64,000 nucleotides of DNA from an uncultured archaeon (GTDB taxonomy: Archaea; Iainarchaeota; Iainarchaeia; Iainarchaeales; GCA-2688035), in the NCBI GenBank assembly GCA_964640195.1, contig CAZXIC010000002.1, forward strand, positions 81,743 through 145,742. Direction: 5' to 3'. Position 1 is the stretch's first letter, and every line of letters starts with the position of its first letter. The notes below the pieces were generated by a model. That model did not search any database. It was not told the DNA's origin and saw only the letters and a list, made by a program, of their open reading frames with translations. Below, piece after piece: positions 3,417 through 39,061 of this stretch. The position numbers and the translations under genes are program-made.

Positions 3417-3422
3417 GACAAA

Positions 3423-11380: not shown

Positions 11381-11382
11381 CT

Positions 11383-12021: not shown

Positions 12022-12023
12022 AA

Positions 12024-16765: not shown

Positions 16766-16875
16766 CAGGCTCACCTTATGGCTCAAAAAACTGAAAAAAC
16801 TGGCTCTTATACCCCCAAACAGCAAATAAATTCAACCAAGAAAAGGGTTTTAAAAGTAATGTGAAAAGCGCGCAG

Positions 16876-17436
16876 TCAGCGCCTTCTCACAATCTTTGGT
16901 CTTTGGGCAGTCCTTCTCTTCTTGGTTTTCCTGCGTGGCTTTGTAAGAAATTTATATTCCTCCGTGGAACCTGTTGCAGTATGCTCTAGAATCCTATCCC
17001 TAACAAGTTTTCTTATGAAATTCAGCCCATCAGGGGTAAGCCCACGCAAACAGAGAGTTGTTTTACGGCCAACCCCGTGTTGCATCCAGCTGAAAAGCGC
17101 CCTCGCTGGCGTCTTTCCCCTTGCCCTGGCATAATTCAGGGTTGCCGCCTTTTTAGCACTGCTTGCAATATGAAAGGAAGCATAAGGCTTTCCAGTAATA
17201 TCGTTGACCCATTGCTTGTAAAACAACGCAGTTATCGGCTGGTTGTTTGCGAGAACAACAAGCAGGTGATTTCCCCGTTTCCTGAGAGAACTTGGCTTTA
17301 CCGGCATGACCTTCCCGATAATACGGCGCGATTTCTCAAGCAAATCCCTTTTTTCTGCGCCACTCAACTTCGGTTCGTAACCTGAAGGAGTTCTCCAGGT
17401 TGCCACATCAAGCAACTGGAATTCCACTTTCTGCAT
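16876..17436 (-). CDS. Hypothetical protein with basic C-terminal tail
   Basis: 186-aa ORF with normal composition ending in 'KPRRKTKKRRTAQRPKIVRRR'. No motif recognised. Confidence 0.5.
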   Translation of the reverse strand: MQKVEFQLLDVATWRTPSGYEPKLSGAEKRDLLEKSRRIIGKVMPVKPSSLRKRGNHLLVVLANNQPITALFYKQWVNDITGKPYASFHIASSAKKAATLNYARARGKTPARALFSWMQHGVGRKTTLCLRGLTPDGLNFIRKLVRDRILEHTATGSTEEYKFLTKPRRKTKKRRTAQRPKIVRRR

Positions 17437-22804: not shown

Positions 22805-23869
22805 ATGGATATAGAGAAATATCTCGCGGAAAAGAAGCCCTTGATTGACAGGGAGATTGAAAAGGTGATTCCCAGAAAGCTCAGTGAGAATTGGCTGCAC
22901 GATGCCCTTGGTAAACCAGATTACAGCTATGACGCAGAGAGCATTTCGCGCAGCACTGCAGGGCCAATTTGGGATTTGTTGGACAGGGGCGGCAAGAGGT
23001 GGAGGCCTGGGCTTACGCTGCTCTGCTGTGAAGCGGTCGGCGGTGGGGAAAATGATGCGTTGCCTTTCACGCCAGTTGTGGAATTAATCCACTCTGGAAC
23101 ACTGATTTGCGATGATGTTGAGGACGACAGCCAGAAGCGGAGGGGCAAGCCCTGCATCCACTTGGTTTACGGGCAGGACACCGCGATAAACACCGGCTGC
23201 GCGCTTTACTTCATTCCCTTGACACTGCTGTACAAAAACAGGCAAGGGATTGGCTGTGAAAAGGGCAAGAAAATCTATGACCTGTACGCGGAAGAAATGC
23301 TGAGGTTAAGCATCGGGCAGGCGACAGACATTTTTTGGCACAAGGGGGAAAAGCAGGGCATTACGGAGCAGCAGTACCTGCAGATGGTTGTAAACAAGAC
23401 AGGCGTCCTTGCAAGGTTTGCGGCAAAAATGGGCGCTATTCTTGGAAACGGAAGCATGGAGCAGATTGATGCACTTGGAAAATTCGGGGAATCAGTTGGC
23501 ATCGGCTTCCAGATACAGGATGACATACTTGAGCTGACCAGCGGGCAGTTCAGGAAAGGCAAGGGCAGTTTGGGGGGAGACATCCATGAGGGGAAGATGA
23601 CGCTGCTTGTCATAAAAACGCTTGAAAAGGCTTCGGCAAGCGATAAAAAGCGCTTGATTGAGATTTTGCAATCCCACGCAAGCGATGAAAAGCGCATTAA
23701 CGAGGCGATTGCGATAATTAAAAGATACGGGGCAATTGAATACGCTGGGGAAAAAGCCAACGCGATTGTTGAAAACGCATGGAAGGAGATTGACGCAGTG
23801 CTGCCGGAAAGCGGGGCAAAGGAGCTCTTACACGGCTTGGCCCTGTACTGCACGAAAAGGGAAATATAG
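22805..23869 (+). CDS. idsA: Polyprenyl (geranylgeranyl) diphosphate synthase
   Basis: First Asp-rich motif 'ICDDVEDDSQKRRGKP' and second 'GFQIQDDILE'. Confidence 0.9.
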   Translation: MDIEKYLAEKKPLIDREIEKVIPRKLSENWLHDALGKPDYSYDAESISRSTAGPIWDLLDRGGKRWRPGLTLLCCEAVGGGENDALPFTPVVELIHSGTLICDDVEDDSQKRRGKPCIHLVYGQDTAINTGCALYFIPLTLLYKNRQGIGCEKGKKIYDLYAEEMLRLSIGQATDIFWHKGEKQGITEQQYLQMVVNKTGVLARFAAKMGAILGNGSMEQIDALGKFGESVGIGFQIQDDILELTSGQFRKGKGSLGGDIHEGKMTLLVIKTLEKASASDKKRLIEILQSHASDEKRINEAIAIIKRYGAIEYAGEKANAIVENAWKEIDAVLPESGAKELLHGLALYCTKREI

Positions 23870-23924
23870 CTGATTGCTGCAAAAAAGGTGAGGCTGCATT
23901 AAACCCAAGGGCAAAAGCATTGCC

Positions 23925-24785
23925 GTGATTGGTTCAGGGCCAGCAGGAATGCATGCAGCGCTGCTGCTTGCAAAGGCAGGCTTTGCCGTTGAGCTGTTTG
24001 AAAGGGAGGAAAAGCTCGGGGGTGCCTTGCGCTATTACCTGCCCCTTTTCAGGTTCAAGAGGGATGGCATAGAAAAGAAAGCAGCTGAATTGCGGAAACT
24101 TGGCGTGGAAATCCATCTGGGAAAAGAGATTGGAAAGCACGAAAAGCTGGATAAAATATCTAAAAGGTTTGATTCTGTTGTGCTTGCAACAGGCGAATGG
24201 AAGGAGAGAAAGCTCGGCTTGGGCGGGGAGCAGTTAAAAGGAGTGGAATATTGGACAACATTTCTGCGGAAATACAACGAGGGAAAGCAAGAACTGCTGC
24301 GTGGAGAGAATGCAATTGTCATCGGGGGCGGTGATACTGCAATAGATTGCGCAAGAGTGGCAAAAAGGCTCGGGGCAGATGCGACGATTGCCTACAGGAG
24401 GAGCAGGGAGGGAATGCCAGCGGAAAAGCAGGGGGTAGAGGCAGCCGAACAAGAAGGCGTGAAATTCAGGTTTCACTTGAGCCCGGTTGAATTCAGGGGG
24501 AAAGAAAGGCTTGAAGCGATTGTCTTTGAAAAAACACTGGGAACAGGAAGGGAAATGCAAATGACTGGAGAGAGTGAAGAGCTGCCGGCAGGCAGGGCAA
24601 TAATCGCCTCAGGCCAGCAGCCAGACATGGGTGTTTTGCATGGCACCTGCTGGAACAGCTTTGCCCAGCTGCCTGAAAAAATAGTGCTTGCCGGAGACCT
24701 TGCAAACAGGGAAAGGAGGATTGCCGCAGCAATTGGTTCAGCTGCAGCTGCAGCTGAAAAAATAAAAGAAATTATAGGCAATTGA
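23925..24785 (+). CDS. FAD/NAD(P)-binding oxidoreductase, glutamate-synthase-small-subunit-like, lacking the Fe-S N-domain
   Basis: Two dinucleotide folds, 'VIGSGPAGMHAALLLAKAG..ELFEREEKLGG' and 'IVIGGGDTAIDCARVA'. The in-frame region upstream of the GTG encodes the missing beta1 strand (see findings). Confidence 0.7.
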   Translation: MIGSGPAGMHAALLLAKAGFAVELFEREEKLGGALRYYLPLFRFKRDGIEKKAAELRKLGVEIHLGKEIGKHEKLDKISKRFDSVVLATGEWKERKLGLGGEQLKGVEYWTTFLRKYNEGKQELLRGENAIVIGGGDTAIDCARVAKRLGADATIAYRRSREGMPAEKQGVEAAEQEGVKFRFHLSPVEFRGKERLEAIVFEKTLGTGREMQMTGESEELPAGRAIIASGQQPDMGVLHGTCWNSFAQLPEKIVLAGDLANRERRIAAAIGSAAAAAEKIKEIIGN

Positions 24786-24860
24786 CGAATTTTGATTTGA
24801 CGATAACCGTAACCTTTTTATAAGGCAGCTGAATATAATTGATAAAACAAGGGTGGAAAG

Positions 24861-26156
24861 TTGCCTTCAAGCGAGATACACAGGTTCTACAAAAAAAGCC
24901 AGCAGGAAAGGCTGCAGACAGTGAAGGAATTCGCTTCATTGTCAGGAGAGGACATTGCTGTTTTACAGAAATTTGGCGCAATGGATTTTGAGACAGCAGA
25001 CAGGATGAACGAGAATGTTGTTGGAACACAGCAGTTGCCGCTTGGCATAGCAACCAACTTCCAGATAAACGGGAAGGACTACATTGTGCCAATGAGCATT
25101 GAGGAGCCGAGCATTATTGCAGCAGCAAGCAAAATTGCAGGATTGGTAAGGAAAACAGGCGGCTTTACTGCATCGGCAGACGAACCAATAATGGTAGGGC
25201 AGATTCAGCTTTTGGGGGCAAAAGATGCACGCAAAGCAAAGAAGGCAATAATGGCAAAGAAGAAAGAGCTTCTCCGAAAGGCGAATTCGTTTGACCCGGT
25301 CTTGGTGAAATTCGGCGGCGGGGCAAAGGACATCAAGGCGAGGGAAGTGAAAAGCGAACGAGGGAAGATGCTTGTAGTGCACCTGTTGGTTGATTGCAGG
25401 GATGCAATGGGGGCAAATGCAGTGAACGGAATGGTTGAAACAATAGCGCCGGAGGTTGCGGAATTGGCAGGAGGAGAGCCGCGGCTGTTCATAATCAGCA
25501 ACCTTGCAGTGCACAGGAAGGCAAGGGCAAAAGCGGTTTTAACACCTAAGGCACTGGAAGAGAGCTTCAAGGGAAAAGAAGTCGGGTTTTCCGGCAAGGA
25601 AATAATTGAAAGGATTCTGGATGTGTATGCCCTGGCTGCAGCAGACCAGTTCCGTGCTACAACGCACAACAAGGGGGTAATGAATGCGATTGACGCAATT
25701 GCAATTGCAACAGGGCAGGACTGGAGGGCGCTTGAGAGCGGGGCGCACAGCTTTGCGGCTTATGAGCGGAAATACAGCCCTTTGACGCGTTACAGGAAGG
25801 ACAAGAAAGGTAACCTTGTTGCTGAGATAGAGCTGCCCTTGGCTGTTGGGCTGGTTGGAGGGGCGGTAAAAACAAGCCCAGTTGCACAGGTTGCGATAAA
25901 AATCCTTGGCATCAAGACCGCGCAGCAATTGGCCCAGGTAATGGCAGCTGTTGCTTTGGCAGAGAACATCGGCAGCCTGAGGGAGATTGCTGTTAGGGGG
26001 ATAAGGCACGGGCACATGGAACTGCATGCAAAGAACATTGCGGTCATTGCCGGCGCAAAGGCGAAAGAGATTGACGCAGTTGCGGAGCAGATAGCAAGGG
26101 AAGGGAATATAAGGGTTAACAGGGCAAAGGAAATACTTTTGGAGTTGAGGAAATGA
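24861..26156 (+). CDS. mvaA: HMG-CoA reductase, class II (bacterial/MvaA-like)
   Basis: '[16 protein letters not shown]', 'DAMGANAVN', '[14 protein letters not shown]', 'GLVGGAVK' and '[13 protein letters not shown]'. Collinear with class II enzymes as I recall them. Confidence 0.9.
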
Positions 26157-27205
26157 TTGGGATAACTGGTTACGGGGTGTACGTGCCAAAGTACAGGATT
26201 ACGCTTGAAGAGATTGCCCTCACCTGGGAAAAGGACGGGAAAAAGATAGCTGAATCCCTGAATGTAAAGGAGAAGGCAGTGGCAAGTTTTGACGAGGATG
26301 CCTGCACTATTGCGGTTGAGGCAGCAAGAAACGCAGTGAAGATGGCTGGCATTGATGCCCAGAAGATAGGTGTAGTGTATGTGGGCAGTGAATCCCACCC
26401 CTATGCAGTGAAGCCCACTGCATCGGTTGTAGCAGACGCAATAAACGCCGGCCCGGAGCTGACAGCAGCAGACCTGGAGTTTGCCTGCAAGGCTGGAACT
26501 GCCGGAATGCAGATGTGCATGGGCCTGGTGCTGAGCGACCAGCCTGATTGGATTGATTACGGCCTGGCGATTGGGGCTGACACTGCCCAGGGCAGGCCGG
26601 GAGATGCCTTGGAGTACACTGCAGCAAGCGGCGGTGCAGCGTTTATCATTGGGAAGAAGCCAACGGAAGTGATTGCAGAGATTGACGAAACATTTTCCTA
26701 TACAACCGACACGCCTGATTTCTGGAGGAGGCAGAACGCGGAATTCCCGAGGCACGCTGGCAGGTTTACGGGAGAACCGGCATACTTCAAGCACGTTGTG
26801 AACGCAGCAGAGGGGCTGATGGCAAAAGCCAAAATGAAGGCAGATGATTTTGATTACGCCGTGTTCCACCAGCCAAACGGAAAGTTCCCAATAAGGGCTG
26901 CAAAAATGCTTGGAATCAAGCCAGAGAAGACAGTTCAGGGATTGCTCGCGCCACTGATAGGAAACACTTACAGCGGGAGCACCCTGATTGGGCTTGCGTC
27001 AATCCTGGACGCTGCAAAGCCAGGGCAAAAAATCCTTGCGGTAAGCTATGGAAGTGGAGCAGGCAGCGATGCGTTTGCCCTGACAGTCAGAAAGCCGATT
27101 GAAAGGAAGAGGGCAGGGCAGCCAGTGCTTGCTGTGATTAAGGAAAAGCAGTACATCAGCTACGCCCAGTACGCAAAATTCAGGAGGAAGCTGAAAACAC
27201 TGTAA
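26153..27205 (+). CDS. HMG-CoA synthase, archaeal type
   Basis: '[21 protein letters not shown]' N-terminus, active-site region '[11 protein letters not shown]' and 'FHQPNGKFP'. 4-nt overlap with the reductase gene. Confidence 0.9.
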
Positions 27206-27250
27206 AGGTGGAAAAATGCTGTCAGGAAAAGTAAGGAGAAGGGGGCAAGA

Positions 27251-28408
27251 ATGAGGAGCGTTTCAATAATCGGCGCGGCATGCACCAAGTGCGGCGAGCA
27301 CTGGGAGAAGGCATTCAGGGAACTGGTTGCAGAGGCCGGAGTACAGGCGCTGATGCAAAGCGGCTTGGTTGGCAAGGACATTGAGGCAATTTACGGCAGC
27401 TGCATGGCTTCAGGGCGCTTTATCGCACAGGAGCACATCGGCGCGCTGATTGTGGACCAGCTTGGTTTGGTACCTATACCAGCAACGAGGATTGAGGCTG
27501 CCTGCGCTTCAGGCGGCGTTGCGCTGAGGAATGCCTACCTTGCGGTTGCTTCAGGCGCATACGATGTGGTTGCAGTTGGAGGCGTGGAAAAGATGACTGA
27601 GGTGAGCACGAGCGAGGCGGCGATTGCATTAGGGGGAGCGGGCGACCAGGAAACAGAGCTGTTCCACGGGGCAAGCTTTCCCGCATTGTATGCACTGATG
27701 GCAAGGCGGCACATGCACGAATTCGGAACAACGGAGGAGCAGATGGCAATGTGCTCTGTCCAGGCGCACAAGAACGGCATGCTGAATCCCAACTCGCAGT
27801 TCCACAGGGAAATTACTGTTGAAGACGTGATGAATTCCGGCTGCGTTGCAAGCCCGCTCAAGCTGCTGGACTGCTCGCCCATAACAGATGGGGCAGCAGC
27901 CCTCATCCTGTGCGAAACAGGGAAGGCAAAAAAGCTCGGGGCAGACGCGATTGAAATCATTGGCTCTGCGCAGGCTTCAGATAGCTTGGCCCTGACAGGC
28001 AGAAAGAGCCTCACAGAGCTGCGCGCCACAAAGAGTGCTGCGGAGAAAGCATACTCGCAGGCAGGCGTCAGGGTAAAGGACATTGACGTGGTTGAATTGC
28101 ATGATTGCTTTTCCATAGCGAACATAATGGCAATAGAGGGTCTGGGTTTCTTCAAAAAAGGCGAAGGGGGTAAGGCTGTTGAGGAAGGAAGAACAGCCCT
28201 AAATTCAGAAATCTCGGTTAATCCCTCAGGCGGGCTGAAATGCGGGCATCCTGTGGGAGCGACAGGCGTAAAGCAAGTGGCGGAAATAGTTGGGCAGCTG
28301 CTCGGCAAATGCGGGAAACGGCAGGTTAAAGGCGCGGAAATCGGCTTGGCGCACAACGTTGGAGGCAGTGGGGCAACAGCTGCTGTCCACATACTGCGCA
28401 GGGCATAG
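27251..28408 (+). CDS. Acetyl-CoA acetyltransferase (archaeal thiolase)
   Basis: 'RIEAACASGGVALR' (active-site Cys), 'ELHDCFSI' and 'GGLKCGHPVGATG'. Confidence 0.9.
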   Translation: MRSVSIIGAACTKCGEHWEKAFRELVAEAGVQALMQSGLVGKDIEAIYGSCMASGRFIAQEHIGALIVDQLGLVPIPATRIEAACASGGVALRNAYLAVASGAYDVVAVGGVEKMTEVSTSEAAIALGGAGDQETELFHGASFPALYALMARRHMHEFGTTEEQMAMCSVQAHKNGMLNPNSQFHREITVEDVMNSGCVASPLKLLDCSPITDGAAALILCETGKAKKLGADAIEIIGSAQASDSLALTGRKSLTELRATKSAAEKAYSQAGVRVKDIDVVELHDCFSIANIMAIEGLGFFKKGEGGKAVEEGRTALNSEISVNPSGGLKCGHPVGATGVKQVAEIVGQLLGKCGKRQVKGAEIGLAHNVGGSGATAAVHILRRA

Positions 28409-28467
28409 CGAGGAGAATAAGGATAATAGCAAAAGGCGAATAAATTTGCATTAAGGTGGAATCGGGA

Positions 28468-28806
28468 ATGGTCGAAAAAATCTTGCAGAATTTCTTGGTT
28501 GGTGGGGCATTGGTTGCATTGGCTTTGGCTGTGGGTTCAGTTGCAGGGGCTGTTTTCGGCGGCTTGGTTGCTGCTCTACCAATAAGGCTAGCTGCAACGC
28601 TGCTGATAGGCGGCATGAGAGAGGGCGAGCAATTTGCACTAAAGATGGCTGAAGGCTCATTGCTTACTTATTTCGGAACTTTTGCCTTCATTGCAATTTT
28701 GTTTTTGGGAATTCCAAGAATCGGCTTTGCAAAGAGTTTTGTTATAGCAATAGTTGCAGATGCGGCAATTATCTTGTTATTGTTTAAGTTAGCTGGAAAA
28801 ATTTGA
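28468..28806 (+). CDS. Small integral membrane protein
   Basis: About 112 aa with 3-4 hydrophobic helices ('FLVGGALVALALAVGSVAGAVFGGLVAALPI...'). Inserted between the thiolase and DUF35 genes. Confidence 0.5.
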   Translation: MVEKILQNFLVGGALVALALAVGSVAGAVFGGLVAALPIRLAATLLIGGMREGEQFALKMAEGSLLTYFGTFAFIAILFLGIPRIGFAKSFVIAIVADAAIILLLFKLAGKI

Positions 28807-28817
28807 TTGGTGACGGA

Positions 28818-29222
28818 ATGACGAACGGCGGTTTGCCTTTGATTTGGAGGAAATTCCCTGAAAGGTACTTGCTGCAGGGGAACAAGTGCGAAACGTGCGG
28901 AAGCGCTTTCTTCCCAGCAAGGACAATCTGCCCGAACTGCAGGAGGAAAGGGAAGCTGGTTGAACAGGAAATGCCAAGGGAAGGGAAAATAATCACTTTC
29001 ACTGAGGTCTTCACTGCCCCATACGGCTTTGAGTTTGAGACGCCTTACTTTATCGCAATAATTGAGTTGAGCAACAAGGCAAAAGTGCTTTCGCAGGTTG
29101 TTGATTCGCCGAGGGAAAAAATTAGGATTGGGACAAAGGTCAGGAAGGTCTTCAGGAAAATATCAGACATTGACCCTGAAGGGCCGATTGCGTACGGGTA
29201 TAAATTCAAGGTTGTGGACTAA
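28818..29222 (+). CDS. DUF35-type Zn-ribbon/OB-fold protein (thiolase/HMGCS scaffold family)
   Basis: 'CETCGSAFFPARTICPNCRRKG' rubredoxin-like ribbon followed by an OB-fold-like segment. ATG 28818 preferred over TTG 28803. Confidence 0.8.
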   Translation: MTNGGLPLIWRKFPERYLLQGNKCETCGSAFFPARTICPNCRRKGKLVEQEMPREGKIITFTEVFTAPYGFEFETPYFIAIIELSNKAKVLSQVVDSPREKIRIGTKVRKVFRKISDIDPEGPIAYGYKFKVVD

Positions 29223-29237
29223 TTTTATTGGTGTGAA

Positions 29238-29567
29238 ATGCCTAAACCAAGGGATGCAAGAACCGAGATTAGGAAGCTGGTTTTCACCGCAATGGGACTG
29301 GGCCCCAGTAAAGGCATCCTAAGAGAAAAGTCAAGGTCCGATATACACGCTTTTCTACAGCCCTACGGAGGAGCAAGATATCCGTTGGTTAGGGCAGGCG
29401 ATAGAACAAAGATCGCACAGGAATACCTGCAAGCACAGCACAGGCTGCTGGAATTTTACCAGCGAGCGATGAGGGAAGTCGGGCTTATCGGGGAAAGGGA
29501 AACTCCCTTTACAATTTACCCATTAAGAAATAGCCTACTTTATCAGATAAAGGCAAGGAAAAGGTAA
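29238..29567 (+). CDS. Hypothetical protein
   Basis: 109-aa ORF with normal composition inside the mevalonate cluster. No motif recognised. Confidence 0.45.
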   Translation: MPKPRDARTEIRKLVFTAMGLGPSKGILREKSRSDIHAFLQPYGGARYPLVRAGDRTKIAQEYLQAQHRLLEFYQRAMREVGLIGERETPFTIYPLRNSLLYQIKARKR

Positions 29568-29596
29568 TCTTTAACTTATTTTGCGAAAATAAGTTA

Positions 29597-30550
29597 ATGG
29601 GTGCTCTAATGGGGAAAGGTAAGGGATTTGGGAAAACAATTCTCTTTGGAGAGCACTTTGTAGTATACGGCTTGCCGGCAATTGCCTCTGCTCTGGCTGA
29701 TATCACAACTGCCGAAGTTGAAAAAGCCGAAGAAAAAGGATTGCATTTCATTGACGAAAGACCTGCAACACCCGGCTACAAAGAAAAGAAAAAAGAGGAA
29801 ATCCAAAGGCAGCTGGATGCACTTATTGAACACTTCAAGATTGACACTGGGAAAGAAGGCACCAGGATAAGGCTTGCGGGAAACCTGACCTGCGCATCCG
29901 GTGTCGGAGCAAGTGCAGCGCTTGCAGCAAGCATCGCCAGGGCTTTGAACAAAATGCTTGGGCTTAACATGAATGACGACCAGATAAACGAAGCGGCATA
30001 CATAGCCGAAAAAGCCGGAACAGGAACGCCGTCCGGAATAGACAACACCTGCTCTGTCTATGGGGGATTCATACTGTTTGAGAAAAACCTCACAGGCGGG
30101 CCAAACAAAATAGAAAGGCTCTCGGTAAAAGAGCCTGCAGAGATAGTGCTTGCAAACACAGGCATAACACAGGAAACAAAGGTTGTGGTTGGGGATGTGA
30201 GAAAGAAAAAGGAAGCTGACGAGGCATGGTTTGGAAAGGTATGCGAAGAATACAAAGAAATGTTTGACAAAGCACTGGAAGGCTTAAAAAATGGCGATTG
30301 GAAAACAGTTGGAGAGCAAATGGACAGAAACCAAGAACTGCTCCAAGAAATTGGCGTTTCCTGCAAAGAAATAGAGGAGATAGTTAAGGCTGCCAAAGAA
30401 AACGGGGCATTTGGAGCAAAGCTCACAGGCACGGGCAGGGGTGGCTACGTTCTGCTGCTTACGCCAGGAAAAGAACTCCAGGAAAAAGTAGCCAACGCAG
30501 TAAAAGATAAGGGCTACGCAACTTTTAGGACAAAAATTGGAGGCGAGTAA
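29597..30550 (+). CDS. mvk: Mevalonate kinase
   Basis: 'GKTILFGEHFVVYGLPAIA' and GHMP motif 'SGVGASAALAASIARAL'. Confidence 0.9.
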   Translation: MGALMGKGKGFGKTILFGEHFVVYGLPAIASALADITTAEVEKAEEKGLHFIDERPATPGYKEKKKEEIQRQLDALIEHFKIDTGKEGTRIRLAGNLTCASGVGASAALAASIARALNKMLGLNMNDDQINEAAYIAEKAGTGTPSGIDNTCSVYGGFILFEKNLTGGPNKIERLSVKEPAEIVLANTGITQETKVVVGDVRKKKEADEAWFGKVCEEYKEMFDKALEGLKNGDWKTVGEQMDRNQELLQEIGVSCKEIEEIVKAAKENGAFGAKLTGTGRGGYVLLLTPGKELQEKVANAVKDKGYATFRTKIGGE

Positions 30551-31549
30551 ATGAAAGCAACGGCAAAGGCAAACGCAAACATTGCCCTGACAAAATATTG
30601 GGGGAAGAGAGACAAAAAGCTGATGCTGCCACAGAACGGAAGCACAAGCATGACATTGAGTGACCTATTTACGATTACAACTGTTGAGTTTGACAAGAAG
30701 TATGATAAAGACATTTTTATTCTTGGGGAAGAGGAATTCAAAGAAGGGAGCGAGGAATACGATGAAGTAAAAGGACACCTGGGCTTGGTAAGGGAAATGG
30801 CTGGAGTGAGTGAAAAAGCAAAGGTTCAGAGCAAAAATAATTTTCCAACAGCAGCAGGCCTGGCAAGCAGTGCTTCAGGCTTTGCTGCATTAAGTGTTGC
30901 CGCAGCAGGGGCAACGGGCTTGAAGCTGGACCAGCAGCAGCTTAGCGCATTAGCGAGGAGAGGGAGTGGAAGTGCGACCCGGTCTGTTTTGGGCGGCTTT
31001 GTTGAATGGAAAAGGGGGGGAAAGGCGGACGGCAGCGACAGCGTTGCTGTGCAGATTGCACCACCAGAGCATTGGACTGAATTCAGGATGATTACAACGA
31101 TTGTAAGCACTGTGCAGAAGAAGGTTAAAAGCAGGGCTGGAATGGCGAAGACAGTGGAAACATGCCCTTACTACAAGGACTGGCTGGCAACCGTGAACAA
31201 CGACATTGAAAACGTGAAAAAAGGCGTTAAAGACAAGAATTTCACTTTGGTTGGGGAAACCGCCGAGCACAATTGCCTGAAGATGCATGCGACAATGATT
31301 ACAACCAAGCCGCCGATAATATACTGGATGCCTGCAACGATGGCTGTAATCCACGCGGTTCTTGCCTGGAGGGAGGAAGGCCTGGAATGCTATTTCACGA
31401 TTGACGGCGGGCCGCAGGTGAAAGTGATTTGCTTGGAAAAAGACGCAGATGAATTGGAGAAGCGGCTGCAAGGAATTGAGGGCGTTCAGAAAACCATTTT
31501 ATGCAGGCCCGGAGAAGGCGCCAAATTGGTGGAAGGGCACTTGTTTTGA
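30551..31549 (+). CDS. mvaD: Diphosphomevalonate decarboxylase family
   Basis: 'ANIALTKYWGKRD', 'AGLASSASGFAAL' and 'RRGSGSATRS'. ATG directly follows the mvk stop. Confidence 0.85.
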   Translation: MKATAKANANIALTKYWGKRDKKLMLPQNGSTSMTLSDLFTITTVEFDKKYDKDIFILGEEEFKEGSEEYDEVKGHLGLVREMAGVSEKAKVQSKNNFPTAAGLASSASGFAALSVAAAGATGLKLDQQQLSALARRGSGSATRSVLGGFVEWKRGGKADGSDSVAVQIAPPEHWTEFRMITTIVSTVQKKVKSRAGMAKTVETCPYYKDWLATVNNDIENVKKGVKDKNFTLVGETAEHNCLKMHATMITTKPPIIYWMPATMAVIHAVLAWREEGLECYFTIDGGPQVKVICLEKDADELEKRLQGIEGVQKTILCRPGEGAKLVEGHLF

Positions 31550-31560
31550 GGTGATATAAA

Positions 31561-32676
31561 TTGGTTGAAGTTAAAGCGCCTGGAAAACTGCTGCTTACGG
31601 GCGAATGGGCTGTTCTTGAAGTGGGCAATCCCTGCATTGTCCTTGCTGTTGACAAGTATGTTACAGCAAAAGTTGAGGAAAGTGGCAGCATTGCAATAAG
31701 CGCAAGGGATTTGGGGGTAGAAAACAAAGAGGCAAAATTCGACGGAAAGCAGCTGCAATTTAAGCAGGCATTGAGTGACGAGGAGAAGGAAAAAATTGTG
31801 ATGGCGAAGAACTCTGTTGAGATTTGCCTGCGCTATCTGCAGGAGAAAGGCATTGAAACAAAGAAATTCTCTGCAAGCACGGAATCAGAGATAACCTCAA
31901 TAACATTAAAGGATGGTTCAACTGCAAAAGTAGGCTTTGGGAGCAGTGCTGCCGCAGTTGTTGCAATAATCAAGGGCATCCTAAAATTGCATGGCCGGGA
32001 TATTGAATCCCCTGAGGGAAAGGAAAAAACATACAAGCTTGGCTGCATCGCACATTATTTTGGCCAGGGAAAGGTTGGCTCTGCGTTTGATGTTGCAGCA
32101 TCAACTTATGGCGGAGCAATAGTATACCGCCGCTTTGACCCGGAATGGCTTGTGAAAGAGATTGAGTCAGGCAAGCCCGTGAAAGAAATTGTTGAATCAA
32201 AATGGGCTGCCTTTGAAGCAACTCCAATAAAACTCCCTGAAGACTTTATCCTATGCGTTGGGTTTGTCGGCTACAGCGCTTCAACAAAGGTTCTTGTTGT
32301 AAAAATGAGGGACTTCAAGGCAAGCAATGAAGCGTGTTACAACGAGATTTACAGCGGGATAAAAAAGGTCGTAGAGCAGATGATTGAAGCAATCAAGCAA
32401 AGCAACAGTGAAAACATAATGCGGTTAATAAAGGAAAACAGGGTTTTGCTGAAACAGCTTGCAGAGGAAAGCGGAAACAACCTTGAGACAAGGGAATTGA
32501 CTGCTCTAATTGAAGCAGCTGATGCAGCCGGCGCAGCTGCAAAGTTTTCTGGTGCAGGGGCAGGAGACTGCGGCATTGCCATCTGCTTTAACAACGAAAC
32601 CGCCGAGAAAGTGAAGAATGTTTGGAAAGAGAAGGGCATTTACTCAATAGATGTCAATGTTTCACGAAGATGTTAA
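31561..32676 (+). CDS. mvaK2: Phosphomevalonate kinase, GHMP/ERG8 (bacterial MvaK2-like) type
   Basis: 'VKAPGKLLLTGEWAVLE', 'GFGSSAAAVVAIIKG' and 'KFSGAGAGDCGIAICF'. These parallel streptococcal PMK motifs. Confidence 0.85.
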   Translation: MVEVKAPGKLLLTGEWAVLEVGNPCIVLAVDKYVTAKVEESGSIAISARDLGVENKEAKFDGKQLQFKQALSDEEKEKIVMAKNSVEICLRYLQEKGIETKKFSASTESEITSITLKDGSTAKVGFGSSAAAVVAIIKGILKLHGRDIESPEGKEKTYKLGCIAHYFGQGKVGSAFDVAASTYGGAIVYRRFDPEWLVKEIESGKPVKEIVESKWAAFEATPIKLPEDFILCVGFVGYSASTKVLVVKMRDFKASNEACYNEIYSGIKKVVEQMIEAIKQSNSENIMRLIKENRVLLKQLAEESGNNLETRELTALIEAADAAGAAAKFSGAGAGDCGIAICFNNETAEKVKNVWKEKGIYSIDVNVSRRC

Positions 32677-33455
32677 AAATGGAAATAGAGCCCCTGGAAA
32701 ACTATTGCAAGCCCATCTATGAAAGAGCTCCAAGCGTAATCCATAATTGGGGGCATGCCAAAAGAACCGCTGTCGGCGCAAAGTGGTTTGTAAAACTTTT
32801 AGGCGGCACTAAAGAAGAGGAAGAACTTGCATACATAGCCGGAATACTGCATGATATTGTAAGGCCAAACACTGAAAAGGTAGACCACGCACAGGCAAGC
32901 GCGGATGAAGCCAGAAAAATTCTTAAAAAATTTGAATTTGAAGAGGAAAAGATTCAACTAATAGTCCAAAGCGTTAGAGGCCATAGAAAAAAACCAGCTA
33001 AATGGCTGTCTCCACTTCATCAAAGCGTTTTCCTCTCAGACAAACTGCTGGAACAGATGGGAGCATATGTTGTTTTTAGGAGAGCCACTTATGCTGGCGA
33101 AGTAAAGGAATACGCGGACATGGAAGCTAAAGAGGCCATACCAATAAGATGGAATAACGCACTGAAAAAAACGGAAAAACAGTTTTTTGTGGAAAAATTT
33201 CATGAGCTATACGACTACCAAAACGCCTGGCAGATGGAGTTTATAGAAGCCTTTGAAAAAAATGAGAAATGGGCGAACAGGCTGGGCAGCTATTCCTTTG
33301 GGCAAGGAAGAAAGAAAAACAGCAGCCTCGACCAGGCAATATATGACTTTGAACCAAACTCAGAAAAAGAAGAAAAATTCAGGTCAGAAGCATTGGACTA
33401 CATGCAAGGAAAAAAGTTTGCCGAATTTAAAAAAATGGTTTTGCAGGGAGATTAG
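32670..33455 (+). CDS. HD-domain protein
   Basis: 'NWGHAKRTAV' and 'AGILHDIVRP' His/Asp metal motifs. Start at ATG 32670 or 32679. Embedded between the PMK and IDI-2 genes. Confidence 0.7.
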   Translation: MLKMEIEPLENYCKPIYERAPSVIHNWGHAKRTAVGAKWFVKLLGGTKEEEELAYIAGILHDIVRPNTEKVDHAQASADEARKILKKFEFEEEKIQLIVQSVRGHRKKPAKWLSPLHQSVFLSDKLLEQMGAYVVFRRATYAGEVKEYADMEAKEAIPIRWNNALKKTEKQFFVEKFHELYDYQNAWQMEFIEAFEKNEKWANRLGSYSFGQGRKKNSSLDQAIYDFEPNSEKEEKFRSEALDYMQGKKFAEFKKMVLQGD

Positions 33456-33496
33456 CAATTGTTGCAGGCATTTTTAACCTTTTTTGAACAAATTTA

Positions 33497-34534
33497 ATGA
33501 GGGTCAAGATGGCAAACAAAACAAAGAACAGGAAGGCAGAGCACCTGAGGATAGCTGTTGAGAAAGGCGTGCAGTTCAAGGAGAAGAAAACCGGCTTAGA
33601 AAAGATTTCCTTCAAGAATGTAGACTTGAAATATAATGCTTTGCCTGAACTTGATAAAAAAGAGGTCAAGCTTGCTACCCGATTTTTTGGAAAAAAATTA
33701 AAAGCGCCGTTACTAGTTGAGGCAATTACTGGCGGCGTGAAAGAGGCAAAGAAGATAAACAAAGATATTGCAAAGGCTTGCCAAGAGGTTGGCGTTGGAA
33801 TGTGCCTCGGAAGCCAGAGAGCAATGCTGGAAACGCCTGCATTGAAAGAAACCTACATTGTCAGGGGTGTGGCACCGACAATATTCCTGGCTGGGAACAT
33901 TGGGATAACAGAATTGGGGAAGTATTCTGCCAAAGAGATAGAAAATGCGCAGCGCGCTGTGGGGGCAGATGCCCTTGCAGTCCACATCAATGCTGCCCAA
34001 GCGGCGATGCAACCAGAGGCTGAAACCAATTTTAAAAACAGGCTAAAAGAATTGGGGAAAGTAGTGAAACAATTAAAGAAATCAGTATATGTGAAAGAGG
34101 TTGGCCATGGCATAGGGCTTGAGACAGCGAAAGCGCTTGCCAAGACAGGGATAAAGGCAATAGACGTTGCAGGCGCAGGTGGCACAAGCTGGATAGCGGT
34201 TGACTCACTTCGGGGCAAGAAAAGTTTGGGAGAAACATTCTGGGATTTTGGAATTCCAACTGCAGAGAGCATAATCCAATGCAGAAAGGCATTCAAGGGA
34301 AAAATAATTGCATCTGGGGGGATAAGAAGCGGCTTGGACTGTGCAAAGGCGATTGCATTGGGAGCTGACCTCTGCGGCATTGCATTGCCAGTACTCAAAG
34401 CACAGCAAAAAGCAGGTAGTAGCGGGGTTAAGGGATACTTGGAGAAGATTATTGACGAGCTGCGCACTGCAATGTTTCTGGTTGGGGCAAAAAATTTGCA
34501 GCAGTTAAAAAAGAAAGCAATAGTTAAATATTAA
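33497..34534 (+). CDS. fni: Isopentenyl-diphosphate delta-isomerase, type 2 (FMN-dependent)
   Basis: 'NRKAEHLRIA', 'GAGGTSW' and 'IASGGIRSGLDCAKAIALGADL'. Confidence 0.9.
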   Translation: MRVKMANKTKNRKAEHLRIAVEKGVQFKEKKTGLEKISFKNVDLKYNALPELDKKEVKLATRFFGKKLKAPLLVEAITGGVKEAKKINKDIAKACQEVGVGMCLGSQRAMLETPALKETYIVRGVAPTIFLAGNIGITELGKYSAKEIENAQRAVGADALAVHINAAQAAMQPEAETNFKNRLKELGKVVKQLKKSVYVKEVGHGIGLETAKALAKTGIKAIDVAGAGGTSWIAVDSLRGKKSLGETFWDFGIPTAESIIQCRKAFKGKIIASGGIRSGLDCAKAIALGADLCGIALPVLKAQQKAGSSGVKGYLEKIIDELRTAMFLVGAKNLQQLKKKAIVKY

Positions 34535-35302
34535 TTAACCCGGCAGCTTCCTGACGCGCAAAACAGGCAGCTGCTGCCCTGAAAGCAGTTCTTTTACCCT
34601 CTGCTTTTCCTTCCCCAGGCCCTTCCAGTCAAGGACCACTGCTTCGGGCTTCGGCTCGGTTGCCTCTATCGCCTTTTGCAGCATTTCCGCGTCAAAGTTT
34701 GAGAGGGCATACATCGGGCAGATTGCCCCAAGAGCGTACTCTGTCCGCAGGACAAGCTTTGTGAATTCAGGGCAGTAGTGCCCTCCGCCAAGGGCAATTG
34801 CAGTCTTGTAGCTGCCTTCAAGTGAGCTGCAGTTGAGAATTACACTTGCAACCGCCTCCGCTGCTTTTCTGTCCTGCCACTGCTTTTCACTGCTCCCCAG
34901 TTCAATGAAAACAGTCGGCTTTGTCAGGAAAGGACCGTGGTGAAGGCACTCCAGAGAAACATCATACTGCAAACCCATTTCCTCTTTTTGCTTGTGCAGC
35001 CCGACCAAATAATTTTTCATCAAATTTGCGTTTGTCGGCACAAGCATCCTGTCCCTTCCCCCTAATTCTGCCCTGCCCCAGTTTCCGATTGCATGAGCTG
35101 TAAGCGTGGGCTTCTTTGCTTCACTTCTGTGTAGCGAGGCAAAGATGAAAAAATCAGTAGCAATTTCATTCACAGAATCAGCAAAGCACTGGTTGCCCTC
35201 AATGAAATGCAGCTGCATGCTTTTCGGCAGGTTTCCCTGCAGGAAAGAAGCTATGTTCTTTCCCGCAGCATCTTCTTTTGAAACAATTACCGCAAAATCC
35301 AT
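34535..35302 (-). CDS. dtdA: D-aminoacyl-tRNA deacylase, archaeal DTD2 type
   Basis: 'TAHAIGNWG.AELGG', 'ECLHHGP', 'FIELGSSEKQW', 'LGGGHYCP' and 'LDWKG'. Collinear with the archaeal DtdA pattern. Confidence 0.85.
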   Translation of the reverse strand: MDFAVIVSKEDAAGKNIASFLQGNLPKSMQLHFIEGNQCFADSVNEIATDFFIFASLHRSEAKKPTLTAHAIGNWGRAELGGRDRMLVPTNANLMKNYLVGLHKQKEEMGLQYDVSLECLHHGPFLTKPTVFIELGSSEKQWQDRKAAEAVASVILNCSSLEGSYKTAIALGGGHYCPEFTKLVLRTEYALGAICPMYALSNFDAEMLQKAIEATEPKPEAVVLDWKGLGKEKQRVKELLSGQQLPVLRVRKLPG

Positions 35303-35329: not shown

Positions 35330-35809
35330 TTACTTTTTATAGGAATCCGAAAGCTTTGCGAGAACCTTTGCGATGTCGTCCATTGCAGCGTTCGCAGGCT
35401 GCTTTATCCAATAGCTGAAAGATTCCTGCAAGCTGTCCGGCTCTGCGTAGGGGCTGTTGTTGATGAAATACCTGTTGCTCTTCCTCTGCAGCAGTTCCAA
35501 GTCAATCAGCTTGTTCAGATGATAGCGCAGCAGTTTCTCGCTTATTTTTTTGTGGTACCTGCTGTCAATGTACGCCTGCAGCTCTGCTGTCGTCGGCCTC
35601 TGTTTCTTTGCAAGGAGGAAGTGGAACAATGCATCCAAAACGTTCAGGGCAGTGTCCCTTGACTCCTGCTCTGACAGCAGGCCGAACGAAAGGGCAAACC
35701 AGCGCAGCAGGCTGCGCTTTGTCAGCTGCACGCTGGGCGGCAGGTCCATTTTCTTGATGACAAAGGTTTTTCTCACAAGCCCTGCTTCCGGAAGCGCCAT
35801 AAAGACCAC
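35330..35809 (-). CDS. Putative winged-helix DNA-binding protein
   Basis: 'ISEKLLRYHLNKLIDLELLQRKSNRYFIN' is a wHTH-like segment. ATG 35800 is an alternative start. TATA-like ATTATGTATAC lies upstream. Confidence 0.5.
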   Translation of the reverse strand: MVFMALPEAGLVRKTFVIKKMDLPPSVQLTKRSLLRWFALSFGLLSEQESRDTALNVLDALFHFLLAKKQRPTTAELQAYIDSRYHKKISEKLLRYHLNKLIDLELLQRKSNRYFINNSPYAEPDSLQESFSYWIKQPANAAMDDIAKVLAKLSDSYKK

Positions 35810-36313: not shown

Positions 36314-39061
36314 TTACTGCAATTTCTTTTTCTCCAATTCAAGCAGATGGATTTTCTCCCTGTACTCGAAAAGCTTCTGCCTGAAATAGTCCTCTTTTAT
36401 TGTCTGCTTGCAGAACTCTGTTTCAAGGTTCTGCACCATATCCCTGAGCTTTGCGATTTCCGCATCAATTTCCTGCAGCCTGAGCCCTGCCTCAACGGGC
36501 TCAGCTGGCTTCCCTGGCTTGGCAAAAAGCCCCATCAGCTTGGCCGGCAGCATTGAAGCGCTGACTGCAGTTTTATGGGCAGCATACCTGGACTCAGAAG
36601 GCAGCCTTTTCCAGGCAAGGACATGCCTCTTCCTCTCAGTGCTTATTTCCGCAGCTGCCTTCCGCATCTCCTTCTCATGCATGGAAATCTGCTTCTCCAG
36701 TTCACGCCCCTGGGCCTTTCCCTTAACAACGGCTTTCTGCAGCTGCGCTTTCTTTTTCGCAATTGCAAGGCTGCCCCTCTTGTGTTCCAGGAAAAACAGC
36801 TTGTGCATTCTCTTAAGCATATACAAGGCAAACAGTATCACGACAAGCAGAACAAGCAGCAAGGCAATCAAGAAAATAGGCAGCGGCGCATAAACAGCGA
36901 AGGGAAAAGAGGTTGTGCCTTTGTTCCCCAATGAATCAATTGCGGTAATTACAAGCGCAGCTTCAGGCAGGTCTTTGTCGGAAAACACGTAATGCCCGGT
37001 GAAAACATTGCCGTCCTGCTGCAACGGGATGGAAACTCCGTTCAGGACAGCATTCACGTCAGCGCCTGGCACAGCAGCGTTGTTGGCGTAAACAAGCTGG
37101 AACTTAAACTCAAGCTTCTCGCTGACGGACACCTTAAGCTCCTTGGGTTGGAGGAGAACTGCCTTGATTGCCCCTGCATTAATGTCAAGCGTCAGCTCCT
37201 GCAGCCCTGCCAACTCGCCCTTTGCAGCAAAAAAGGAAAAGCTCTGCTTGCCGATGGGAAGGTCAACTGGCACAACATAGCTTCCGGTGTAAGAGCCGTT
37301 TCCGAGGTCCTGCAAATCAATTCCGTTTCCGTAAGCGTCTGTAAGGGAGATTGCTGCACCTTCAATAGGCTCTCCCTCAAGGTCTGTTACAAGCACGTTC
37401 AAGTCAATCGCCTGACCCCTTAAAACAGTGTTGAAGTCAGTGAGGAGCTCGATTGACAACTGCTGCTGCCCTGTATGGGTGCAGGCAGCAGAACAGGTGC
37501 CAGGAGAAAGGCATTCATCCAATGTTATCGGATTCTGGTCATCGCAGTCAGCAGTGCTGCTGCAGGCAATTGTGCAAGGTGTGTTTGAGCAAGAGGCTTC
37601 ACAAGTGCCAGCATTAAGGCACTTGTCGAGGGTCTGGGGGTCATCGTCAAAGCAGTCGCCGTCACCGCTACAGGCAACAGTGCAACCAACGTTGGCGCAA
37701 TACGAATCGCACTGCCCGGGAAAAAAGCAGTAATCACTGGTTGCCTCTATACCGTCATCACAGTCAGCATCAGCTGTGCAAGCAACAGTGCAAACAGTAT
37801 GCGTGCAGTTTGCATCGCAGGTTCCAGCATTATTACATACATCCACTGTCTCAGTGCTGTTGTCATCGCAGTCTGCGTTGCTGTAGCATGCGATTGCGCA
37901 AAGCGAGCTGCTGCAGTTTGCATCGCATGTGCCTGGGTTCAAACAAACATCGACAGTCATAGCGTTGCTATCATCGCAGTCGGCGTTGGCGTCGCATGCA
38001 ACAGTGCAGGCAATTGGCGTATTAGCGCAGTTTGCATCGCATGTGCCTGGGTTCAAACAGGTATCGGTTGTAAGGCTGTTGCTGTCATCGCAGGCAGAAT
38101 CAGAAGTGCATTCAATGGAACAGACAGTGTTGGAACAACTGGCAGAGCAGGTGCCTGGATTGAGGCAAACGTCAGTTGTAAGGGAATTGCTGTCATCGCA
38201 GGCAGCATTATTGTCACACGCGATATCGCACACAGTATGGGAGCAGTTTGCATCGCATGTGCCTGGGTTCAAACAGGTATCGGTTGTAAGGCTGTTGCTG
38301 TCATCGCAGGCAGAATCAGAAGTGCATTCAATGGAACAGACAGTGTTGGAACAACTGGCAGAGCAGGTGCCTGGATTGAGGCAAACGTCCACTGTTAAGC
38401 TATTGCCATCGTCACAGTCAGCGTTTGCATCGCATGCAATCATGCAGTAGCTGAATGTTACGTCTGCTGACGTGTCATCGTCATCGCCTGTTTCGCTGAT
38501 AAAGAAGTTGCCGCTGCCTGTTGCTGCATCGCTGCCTGTTGAAAGGACAAAATAAAAGCTTTCACTGCCGCCGCTTTTCTCAATTCTGCACTGGTCAACT
38601 GTTGGCAGGGCACACAATACGTCATTGCCGCTTAAAGAGGGTGTTCCAGCCTTATAGGTCGTATCATCCAAACAGCCGCAGTATGAAACAGTTGCATCTG
38701 AGCCTATTACATCATTTGCTGCATAAACGTTATGGAAATTGAATTGGTCTGGATAGCCGTGTTGAAACCAATCACTGTTTGAAATAGTCAGCTCAAAGCG
38801 GTAATCGGTACTTCTCAACAAATTGGTATCGCATGCTGCGCTTGCGCCAGTGACATCAATGCCTGTGCATACTGCTGTGCCACTCCCTATAACAGTGCTG
38901 CCGCTTTGAAAAACACCCAAAGAGTCAATTGAGTAATTTGGAGCAGGGGCAAGAAACAGGGAAAAAAAGCCAGCTGGCTGTCCTGGCGCAGAATACAGAA
39001 GCAGGAAAAGCGCTGCAATGGCAAGGGCAGCGGCTGCCAGGACTGCAATGCTTTTGTTCAT
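36314..39061 (-). CDS. Large type-I membrane surface protein with about 10 tandem Cys-rich repeats and a cytoplasmic coiled-coil tail
   Basis: N-terminal signal/TM. Repeats of C-x3-C-x5-C-DD-x8-C-x5-C-x3-C ('ACDDSNSLTTDxCLNPGTCxAxCS') followed by an Ig-like region. TM 'LPIFLIALLLVLLVVILFALYML' and a basic/coiled C-tail. Confidence 0.85.
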   Translation of the reverse strand: MNKSIAVLAAAALAIAALFLLLYSAPGQPAGFFSLFLAPAPNYSIDSLGVFQSGSTVIGSGTAVCTGIDVTGASAACDTNLLRSTDYRFELTISNSDWFQHGYPDQFNFHNVYAANDVIGSDATVSYCGCLDDTTYKAGTPSLSGNDVLCALPTVDQCRIEKSGGSESFYFVLSTGSDAATGSGNFFISETGDDDDTSADVTFSYCMIACDANADCDDGNSLTVDVCLNPGTCSASCSNTVCSIECTSDSACDDSNSLTTDTCLNPGTCDANCSHTVCDIACDNNAACDDSNSLTTDVCLNPGTCSASCSNTVCSIECTSDSACDDSNSLTTDTCLNPGTCDANCANTPIACTVACDANADCDDSNAMTVDVCLNPGTCDANCSSSLCAIACYSNADCDDNSTETVDVCNNAGTCDANCTHTVCTVACTADADCDDGIEATSDYCFFPGQCDSYCANVGCTVACSGDGDCFDDDPQTLDKCLNAGTCEASCSNTPCTIACSSTADCDDQNPITLDECLSPGTCSAACTHTGQQQLSIELLTDFNTVLRGQAIDLNVLVTDLEGEPIEGAAISLTDAYGNGIDLQDLGNGSYTGSYVVPVDLPIGKQSFSFFAAKGELAGLQELTLDINAGAIKAVLLQPKELKVSVSEKLEFKFQLVYANNAAVPGADVNAVLNGVSIPLQQDGNVFTGHYVFSDKDLPEAALVITAIDSLGNKGTTSFPFAVYAPLPIFLIALLLVLLVVILFALYMLKRMHKLFFLEHKRGSLAIAKKKAQLQKAVVKGKAQGRELEKQISMHEKEMRKAAAEISTERKRHVLAWKRLPSESRYAAHKTAVSASMLPAKLMGLFAKPGKPAEPVEAGLRLQEIDAEIAKLRDMVQNLETEFCKQTIKEDYFRQKLFEYREKIHLLELEKKKLQ
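38027..38389. repeat. Perfect 147-bp direct duplication at 216-bp spacing inside the Cys-rich-repeat gene
   Basis: 38027-38173 and 38243-38389 read identically. A 33-bp partial third copy starts at 37913. Confidence 0.9.

Follow-up and report, generated by a model that had tools for sequence, protein, structure and literature searches.

A classical mevalonate gene cluster in an uncultured Iainarchaeales archaeon: an inherited frame and the probable lateral exchange of its mdd-pmk cassette

The isoprenoid gene cluster at positions 22805-34534 of the DNA analysed here raises the question of which mevalonate route it encodes and whether it reached its present genome as one piece. The window, meaning the whole analysed stretch of 64,000 nucleotides, belongs to a 146-kb contig (CAZXIC010000002.1) of an uncultured archaeon of the order Iainarchaeales, whose genome of 1.19 Mb is 88% complete. 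The initial annotation had described a complete classical pathway that was partly bacterial in appearance, unusual for an archaeon and transferable as a unit. The results presented here are best explained, with a probability of about 0.8 for the joint reading, by a classical isoprenoid operon with an inherited frame and a laterally exchanged cassette, consisting of the genes for diphosphomevalonate decarboxylase (MDD, also DMD) and phosphomevalonate kinase (PMK).

Thirteen successive plus-strand open reading frames (ORFs), with short gaps or 4-nt overlaps, occupy the interval, and profile scans against Pfam and NCBIfam, scored against the curated NCBIfam cut-offs, agreed with their earlier description as a consecutive isoprenoid cluster (Table 1). 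HMG-CoA reductase (HMGR), HMG-CoA synthase (HMGCS), thiolase, mevalonate kinase (MVK), MDD, PMK, and the type 2 isopentenyl diphosphate isomerase (IDI2) each scored above the cut-off of their own enzyme model. The gene identities listed earlier held, although the small membrane protein gene had been misplaced, since the actual order is thiolase, membrane protein, DUF35. Position 22805 is also not the start of the co-directional run, which already begins upstream at 19558 with genes for aspartokinase, ASD, and NAD kinase (NADK).

The evidence supports a complete classical route in the lower pathway, as first proposed, with the tests on PMK, MDD, and isopentenyl phosphate kinase (IPK) all pointing in this direction. 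The window decarboxylase reached only 199 bits with the phosphomevalonate decarboxylase (PMD) model (cut-off 475), 64 bits with the MBD model (cut-off 560), and 30 bits with the M3K model. It carries Lys19 (in YWGKRD), Met198 (in AGM), and the catalytic Asp285, three residues common to all classical-type relatives. At the sites aligned with Lys19 and Met198, the wild-type PMD of Anaerolinea thermophila (PDB 6N0X) has Asn and His and its variant 6N0Z has Lys and Met; the window enzyme thus shows the diphosphomevalonate signature and not the Asn/His pair of PMD. The Lys/His signature of DMD and PMD (PMC11052028) and an engineered switch of specificity from PMD to DMD (PMC9254496) have been described previously. 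The assignment of PMK to the ERG8 type was likewise confirmed by its TIGR01220 score and by a full-length alignment to Listeria Lin0012, with the Streptococcus pneumoniae PMK also among the best PDB matches.

The reported lack of IPK in the cluster extends to the rest of the 88%-complete genome, in which a search with the archaeal IPK model found none. Two weak matches to this model were rejected, one being a 373-aa ProB encoded next to proA and the other a truncated fragment at a contig end with archaeal PyrH (UMP kinase) as its best match. A tblastn search of the genome with the UbiX, UbiD, AcnX large and small subunit, and IPK sequences of a sister cluster returned nothing except ProB for the IPK query. 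The genome therefore does not contain the set that defines the archaeal-type pathway (AcnX large and small, UbiD-like, UbiX, and IPK), and the presence of MVK sets it apart from the Thermoplasma type, defined by M3K, M3P5K, MBD, and IPK with MVK absent. When the GGGP and DGGGP synthases were searched for, genes for GGGPS (288 bits, cut-off 247) and for two UbiA proteins, one of them DGGGPS-like, were found elsewhere in the genome, so the cluster plausibly feeds the synthesis of ether lipids. According to the gene content, a thiolase/HMGCS/DUF35 complex would condense acetyl-CoA and class II HMGR would reduce the product, after which MVK and the ERG8-type PMK would phosphorylate mevalonate twice and MDD would decarboxylate it to isopentenyl diphosphate (IPP). 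IDI2 would then isomerise IPP and IdsA elongate it, yielding a prenyl diphosphate that the GGGPS and the DGGGPS-like prenyltransferase encoded elsewhere could convert into archaeal ether lipids.

Within the order, the frame in which these genes are set is ancient and has been passed on by vertical descent. A contig of a metagenome-assembled genome (MAG) from the same family carries NADK-idsA-flavoprotein-HMGR-HMGCS-thiolase-DUF3147-DUF35-x-MVK-MDD-PMK-IDI2-dtdA(-)-157 aa(-), which is the gene order of the window at 63-86% protein identity with the HD gene absent. A complete genome from another family of the order has HMGR-HMGCS-thiolase-DUF35-x-TerC-MVK-MDD-NUDIX-PMK-HAD-IDI2 ... dtdA, and about 20 more genomes of the order share the frame [flavoprotein]-HMGR-HMGCS-thiolase-DUF35-(variable)-MVK-[lower module]-(NUDIX/IDI2)-dtdA(-)-159 aa(-). 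The conserved flanks are NADK upstream and dtdA with the 159-aa gene downstream, and the position of dtdA does not change between relatives with any of the three module types described below. PMK has at least 846 homologues at E <= 1e-10; the top 120 share 46% identity or more, and those bearing names all belong to DPANN archaea. The NCBI names of the close homologues of PMK and MVK include Candidatus Diapherotrites, Aenigmarchaeota, and Nanoarchaeota, which places the host among the DPANN archaea. A scan of genome contigs with PMK gave a single relative, the contig of G014. No tRNA genes (ARAGORN) or RNA families (Rfam) were detected in the window, no integrase was found, and the repeats around the lower module were short and at chance level, marking no element boundaries. 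The initial annotation had itself named a common cluster, vertically inherited in the lineage, as the finding that would speak against a transferable unit, and this is largely what the order-wide synteny indicates.

Variation at the locus is concentrated in the lower module. The slot that holds mdd-pmk-HD in the window is filled by an archaeal-type cassette in most relatives: in those with an MVK 72-74% identical to that of the window, ubiX-ubiD-acnXL-acnXS-ipk follows directly after MVK, and then come an IDI2 or NUDIX gene and the dtdA flank. A third arrangement occurs in another genus of the same family (G008 and G017, with G001 apparently similar), where MVK is absent and IPK and IDI2 lie within the same frame. 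The best matches of the other genes there are mevalonate-3-kinase (M3K), mevalonate-3-phosphate-5-kinase (M3P5K), and bisphosphomevalonate decarboxylase (MBD). In the G008-type module the M3K-like gene reached 133 bits, the M3P5K/2-PGK-like gene 107 bits, and the MBD-like gene 172 bits, all below the curated cut-offs, and the set in G008 and G017 would represent a Thermoplasma-type module, a reading that is coherent but unproven. In the relatives the locus is filled and not empty. Among 41 relatives, eight encode PMK or MDD and 23 encode IPK, none having both. The same exclusion was observed in a phylum sample of 161 genomes, with PMK in 34, IPK in 68, both in none, and neither in 59 (Fisher p = 3.7e-10). 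PMK scored above the cut-off in 20 of the 66 genera sampled across the phylum, and PMK and IPK types were both present inside seven genera (g2, g5, g22, g31, g32, g40, and g42).

Comparison of gene trees indicates how this distribution could have arisen. The tree of the upper module (HMGR, HMGCS, thiolase, and DUF35; 1301 columns) interleaves classical and IPK types: the classical G012 is sister to the IPK-type G001 (support 100/99), and the classical X26 is nested, on very short branches, among IPK-type genomes of genus g5. The starred branches of this tree force at least five changes of type, a number no better than that given by shuffled labels. An approximately unbiased (AU) test on the upper module rejected a clade of the classical members of the family (delta log-likelihood 736, p = 2e-5). 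The same classical genomes form one MDD+PMK clade (100/99), and within the family MDD and PMK are 76-89% identical irrespective of the distance between the upper modules. Between the window and X26, for instance, HMGR, thiolase, and HMGCS are 63%, 69%, and 73% identical, and MDD and PMK 78% and 77%, although across families PMK (~50%) diverges faster than HMGCS (~67%). The MVK tree is discordant with both the upper-module and the MDD+PMK trees; the window MVK groups with IPK-type genomes, and the MVKs of G012 and G014 share 78-80% identity with the MVK of G038, a member of another family. Since the upper and lower trees conflict strongly, the lower module appears to have been exchanged laterally among relatives at a conserved site, and we conclude that this module, sometimes together with mvk, is the only part of the cluster that behaves as a transferable unit. 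As a separate observation, MDD and PMK of the window's family group with one Nanoarchaeota and one Aenigmatarchaeota contig (91/93) and not with other families of the order, a pattern that hints at cassette exchange between phyla.

The exchange would have involved mutually exclusive cassettes swapped repeatedly between related lineages, likely by recombination through the conserved flanks, with DUF35/mvk on the left and idi2/dtdA on the right. A possible trace of this process is the 109-aa ORF (orf109) located between DUF35 and MVK, which had been considered an ORFan. An exhaustive HMMER search with orf109 recovered six proteins; residues 8-83 match the N-terminus of proteins of 448-458 aa and residues 68-109 match their C-terminus (blastp E = 5e-10 and 3e-9). 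These proteins are homologous to a 462-aa gene product with Methyltransf_12/25/31 domains encoded between DUF35 and MVK at locus L027. Because both termini match, orf109 is taken to be an in-frame deletion relic of a methyltransferase-domain gene of about 460 aa that fills this slot in relatives, and the ORF is best read as a scar where the variable region joins its left side. Pfam gave no match for orf109, and none for several ORFs in the slots of relatives or for the 298-aa HD-like ORF at L027. In many relatives, a gene between DUF35 and MVK encodes a protein of ~450-470 aa with an S-adenosylmethionine-dependent methyltransferase domain, and this consistent linkage to the pathway makes the ~460-aa methyltransferase-like protein a candidate for study.

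Several other explanations of the locus were considered. An unusual chimeric origin of the complete 11.7-kb supercluster, partly from bacteria and as a unit acquired or transferable in one piece, is hardly credible given that synteny across the order extends over its frame and the flanks on both sides, that the upper-module tree places the window with its own family, and that 21% of the sampled phylum has this PMK; the named close homologues of PMK and MVK are all DPANN, and tRNA genes, an integrase, or bracketing repeats were not found. The features that speak for such a unit are the lower-module gene order shared with Gram-positive mva operons, the better scores that MDD and PMK reach with bacterial PDB entries than with the Sulfolobus DMD, and the lower GC content at third codon positions (GC3) in the right half of the cluster. 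A non-classical pathway is very unlikely, whether through a haloarchaeal-type PMD, through another GHMP kinase in the place of PMK, or through an IPK in the unassembled 12% of the genome. The genome is indeed only 88% complete, the solved structure nearest to MDD is the Anaerolinea PMD, and DMD and PMD are frequently misannotated (PMC11052028). However, MDD has the Lys and Met of DMD, surpasses the cut-off of the DMD model and falls far below that of the PMD model, PMK exceeds its cut-off and aligns over its full length to the Listeria and pneumococcal enzymes, and IPK is present in none of the 34 PMK-positive genomes of the phylum sample.

A further alternative dispenses with lateral exchange: an ancestor holding several modules would have passed them on vertically only, and its descendants would have lost them differentially. 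This scenario would agree with the age of both modules (between-family identities of ~44-53% for PMK and 43-57% for IPK) and with the fact that change counts on a tree cannot tell gain from loss. It would not be expected to leave a tight MDD+PMK clade within the family whose upper modules fall in different starred clades, nor MVKs of G012 and G014 that group with the family of G038 when their neighbouring genes do not, and a genome with two modules was seen in 0 of 161 cases; as a complete account it is unlikely. An assembly or binning artefact, in which chimeric or mis-binned contigs mimic a polymorphism of modules, deserves hardly any credence. Every genome is a MAG, the contigs bearing several of the clusters are short (6-18 kb), and in G001 the upper and lower parts are on two contigs, but the compared genes are linked on single contigs in the window (146 kb), G037 (613 kb), G038 (1.24 Mb), X26, and G012, so that binning errors cannot yield the conflict between trees, and protein identities of 60-85% leave no shared k-mers for assembly chimeras. 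An inherited frame with an exchanged mdd-pmk cassette thus accounts for the observations better than these alternatives. Its extension to the whole phylum, as a locus with three exclusive forms (mdd-pmk, ubiX-ubiD-acnX-ipk, and m3k-m3p5k-mbd-ipk) exchanged laterally even within genera and leaving scars, has somewhat more than an even chance of being correct.

Some points weigh against the preferred reading of inheritance and exchange. The clade rejected by the AU test had been defined post hoc, with the tree already at hand. GC3 is low over the whole stretch from mvk to idi2 (0.41-0.54, against a genome median of 0.57), alike in mvk, pmk, HD, and idi2, and composition does not mark mdd-pmk as foreign because this stretch includes genes common to the archaeal-type relatives. 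Differential loss from a multi-module ancestor may account for the older events. The relatives are all MAGs, although the key comparisons were made on genes of single contigs. A 27%-identical homologue of the HD protein also sits in archaeal-type clusters, and its role would therefore not be specific to the classical route. The sequence itself shows which genes are present, the diagnostic residues of MDD, the lack of IPK, AcnX, and UbiD, and the synteny, whereas enzyme activities and flux are inferred. Finally, the absence of IPK comes from an 88%-complete genome, though it is backed by the strict exclusion of PMK and IPK across the phylum sample.

The HD-domain protein encoded between PMK and IDI2 has 46 homologues, and those with names belong to DPANN archaea. 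Its start is probably at 32670, because the public gene call is 261 aa. Residues H25, H29, H61, D62, H105, and D124 are invariant and the metal ligands unchanged, and the gene stands beside MVK, MDD, and PMK in each of the five neighbourhoods looked at, which were those of the window, of G014, and of three contigs unrelated to them. An AlphaFold2 model (predicted local distance difference test score 95) had the YpgQ pyrophosphohydrolase and 2PQ7 as its best fold matches, with target-normalised TM-scores of 0.69-0.72 at 16-19% identity. The window protein has the HD fold and the metal ligands in common with Bacillus subtilis YpgQ and 2PQ7; however, it differs from both in an extra C-terminal helical extension of ~80 residues and in its linkage to mevalonate genes. 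At equivalent positions other clusters carry NUDIX (IDI1-like), HAD, or histidine-phosphatase genes. Our guess is that the HD protein acts as a (pyro)phosphohydrolase on a phosphorylated metabolite of the pathway, and the family linked to the cluster may represent an undescribed accessory enzyme of mevalonate metabolism; its consistent linkage makes it a candidate for study.

Among the upper-pathway genes, HMGR was confirmed as class II, with 49 bits for the class I model TIGR00533 (cut-off 442), and its orthologues occur across the whole order at 53-79% identity. The HMGCS start overlaps the HMGR stop by 4 nt. All three members of the archaeal HMGCS/thiolase/DUF35 trio were recovered, by NCBIfam models and by the DUF35 domains, and they are proposed to act as a complex; their adjacency is broken by the DUF3147 gene, located between thiolase and DUF35. 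The DUF35 gene is kept in all relatives. The DUF3147 protein has four transmembrane helices predicted by hydropathy analysis, and its gene is common only to G012 among the relatives, at 86% identity. The product of idsA had been called a geranylgeranyl diphosphate (GGPP) synthase, of which the membership in the prenyl diphosphate synthase family stood and the chain length did not. Its best NCBIfam match, the IdsA model, gave 258 bits (cut-off 468), every chain-length-specific model remained below cut-off, and the DDVED motif at residue 103 is preceded by Gly/Thr at -5/-4 with no aromatic residue there. IdsA is likely a GGPP synthase with its chain length unproven. In view of the Gly/Thr before the first DDxxD and the sub-cut-off scores, a product longer than C20 could also be conceived. 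The idsA gene adjoins the cluster only within the sub-clade G000/G012/G001/G009.

The GltD-like flavoprotein has no N-terminal Fe-S domain (Fer4_20), its alignment to NF009410 covering profile positions 144-445 of 566. Homologues are encoded upstream of HMGR in at least 14 relatives, and that of G011 has 429 aa with Fer4_20 present. Its sole canonical start, GTG at 23925, would cut off the Rossmann strand beta-1 (KSIAVIGSG). At 23898, 4 nt downstream of a strong AAGGTGAGG and just past an in-frame TGA at 23889, there is an in-frame ATT, and the homologue of G012 begins about 30 codons earlier; the flavoprotein possibly initiates at this non-canonical ATT codon.

Further variation was noticed around the locus in the relatives. 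The NUDIX genes of relatives resemble type 1 IPP isomerase (best NF002995, E = 2e-29, below cut-off) and are often found where IDI2 is absent, so the isomerase type may also vary at the locus. In some relatives (P0146) MVK has 523 aa and includes a fused histidine-phosphatase domain (PF00300), and the PMK open frames of G107, G111, and G116 reach 539-553 aa; these long frames may be kinase-phosphatase fusions within the pathway. The 915-aa gene near the right flank of the window, with 46-59% identity over parts and not a housekeeping gene, also has copies after the dtdA/159-aa flank in G001, G012, and G020. It was tried as a proxy for organismal distance and set aside as uninformative, being patchy and family-restricted (14 of 41 relatives). 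A ThyX gene of one relative (G011:C8) is split by an intein that has an HNH endonuclease domain, in the order Thy1 - Intein_splicing - HNH - Thy1.

Table 1. Genes of the isoprenoid cluster and its right flank in the window, and related features at loci of relatives
Feature	Locus	Position	Strand	Evidence or remark
idsA, short-chain trans-prenyl diphosphate synthase	window	22805..23869	+	PF00348 218 bits
GltD-like FAD/NAD(P)H flavoprotein	window	23925..24785	+	Pyr_redox_2 82 bits; NF009410 203 bits
Class II HMG-CoA reductase	window	24861..26156	+	TIGR00532 406 bits (cut-off 260)
Archaeal-type HMG-CoA synthase	window	26153..27205	+	TIGR00748 552 bits (cut-off 353)
Acetoacetyl-CoA thiolase (archaeal thiolase-domain protein)	window	27251..28408	+	NF004720 537 bits (cut-off 420)
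DUF3147 small membrane protein	window	28456..28806	+	PF11345 28.8 bits
DUF35/ChsH2-OB (zinc ribbon + OB fold), putative thiolase/HMGCS scaffold	window	28803..29222	+	PF01796, PF12172
109-aa ORF (orf109)	window	29238..29567	+	HMMER and blastp matches to 448-458-aa proteins
Mevalonate kinase (MVK)	window	29597..30550	+	TIGR00549 222 bits (cut-off 163)
Diphosphomevalonate decarboxylase (MDD/DMD)	window	30551..31549	+	TIGR01240 317 bits (cut-off 171)
Phosphomevalonate kinase (PMK), ERG8/Gram-positive type	window	31561..32676	+	TIGR01220 239 bits (cut-off 166)
HD-domain metal-dependent phosphohydrolase (predicted)	window	32670..33455	+	PF01966; longest ORF from 32622
Type 2 (FMN-dependent) IPP isomerase IDI2	window	33497..34534	+	TIGR02151 367 bits (cut-off 281)
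dtdA, D-aminoacyl-tRNA deacylase	window	34535..35302	-	PF04414 207 bits; outside the pathway, right-flank marker
159-aa conserved gene	window	35330..35809	-	second right-flank synteny marker; 47-83% identical copies after dtdA in relatives
915-aa gene	window	36314..39061	-	
Thermoplasma-type-looking module	L080 (G008:C23)	600-17400		also L081; L076 (G001:C40)
NUDIX gene	L076	2209-2742		
NUDIX gene	L022	9484-10008		
NUDIX gene	L028	15171-15692		
Methyltransferase-like slot gene	L027	5576-6964		also at G009, G013, G004, G008 loci
Methyltransferase-like slot gene	L078	1766-3187		
ThyX with intein	L028 (G011:C8)	1931-3664		

The cluster can be compared with several known systems. Earlier work has documented class II HMGR in DPANN and, for some of these archaea, the classical gene set (PMC6107057, PMC11052028), and mvaD-based and ipk-based routes alternate among orders of Micrarchaeota (PMC12892359). 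The classical pathways of DPANN, in Micrarchaeota and others, have the same MVK, PMK, and DMD set with IPK absent; however, the window cluster belongs to a Diapherotrites-like lineage, which according to the 2018 survey mostly has MVK and IPK. Sulfolobales likewise make archaeal IPP through PMK and DMD (Nishimura et al. 2013, as cited in PMC6107057). The window MDD scored 164 bits against the Sulfolobus DMD (5GMD) and 232-274 bits against bacterial enzymes. To our knowledge, the mevalonate genes of Sulfolobus are not in one operon with HMGR and the trio.

Staphylococcus and Streptococcus have mvaK1-mvaD-mvaK2(-fni) operons. The earlier comparison with these Gram-positive operons was correct as to gene order, mvk-mdd-pmk-(HD)-idi2 matching mvaK1-mvaD-mvaK2-fni, and a TIGR01220 PMK and class II HMGR are also shared. 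In contrast to them, the upper half of the window cluster consists of the archaeal trio and not mvaS/mvaA-C, an HD hydrolase gene is inserted, and the nearest homologues are hundreds of DPANN proteins. As to the partly bacterial look, MDD and PMK have higher bit scores against bacterial PDB entries than against those of Sulfolobus and eukaryotes, and the nearest homologues with names are DPANN. The archaeal-type sister clusters have the same locus, flanks, and upper genes (62-84% identity) and an MVK up to 74% identical, and the window differs from them by having mdd-pmk(-HD) in place of ubiX-ubiD-acnXL-acnXS-ipk.

As first described, the finding is ordinary for the lineage, being a known pathway type in an inherited cluster. 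For the in-situ replacement of the lower module, switching within genera, and three variants in one family, which are suggested by gene content and trees, no description was found in a limited literature search. The gene set suggests that the archaeon, whose genome is small, is able to produce both isoprenoid precursors and the ether-lipid backbone by itself, which bears on its dependence on a host. Near relatives that differ only in the lower cassette would provide direct and datable examples of pathway replacement, an event so far inferred only from deep trees, such as those from archaeal to haloarchaeal to eukaryotic or Thermoplasma types. If the three-form locus is true for the phylum, the lineage would offer a natural experiment on what favours one mevalonate route over another.

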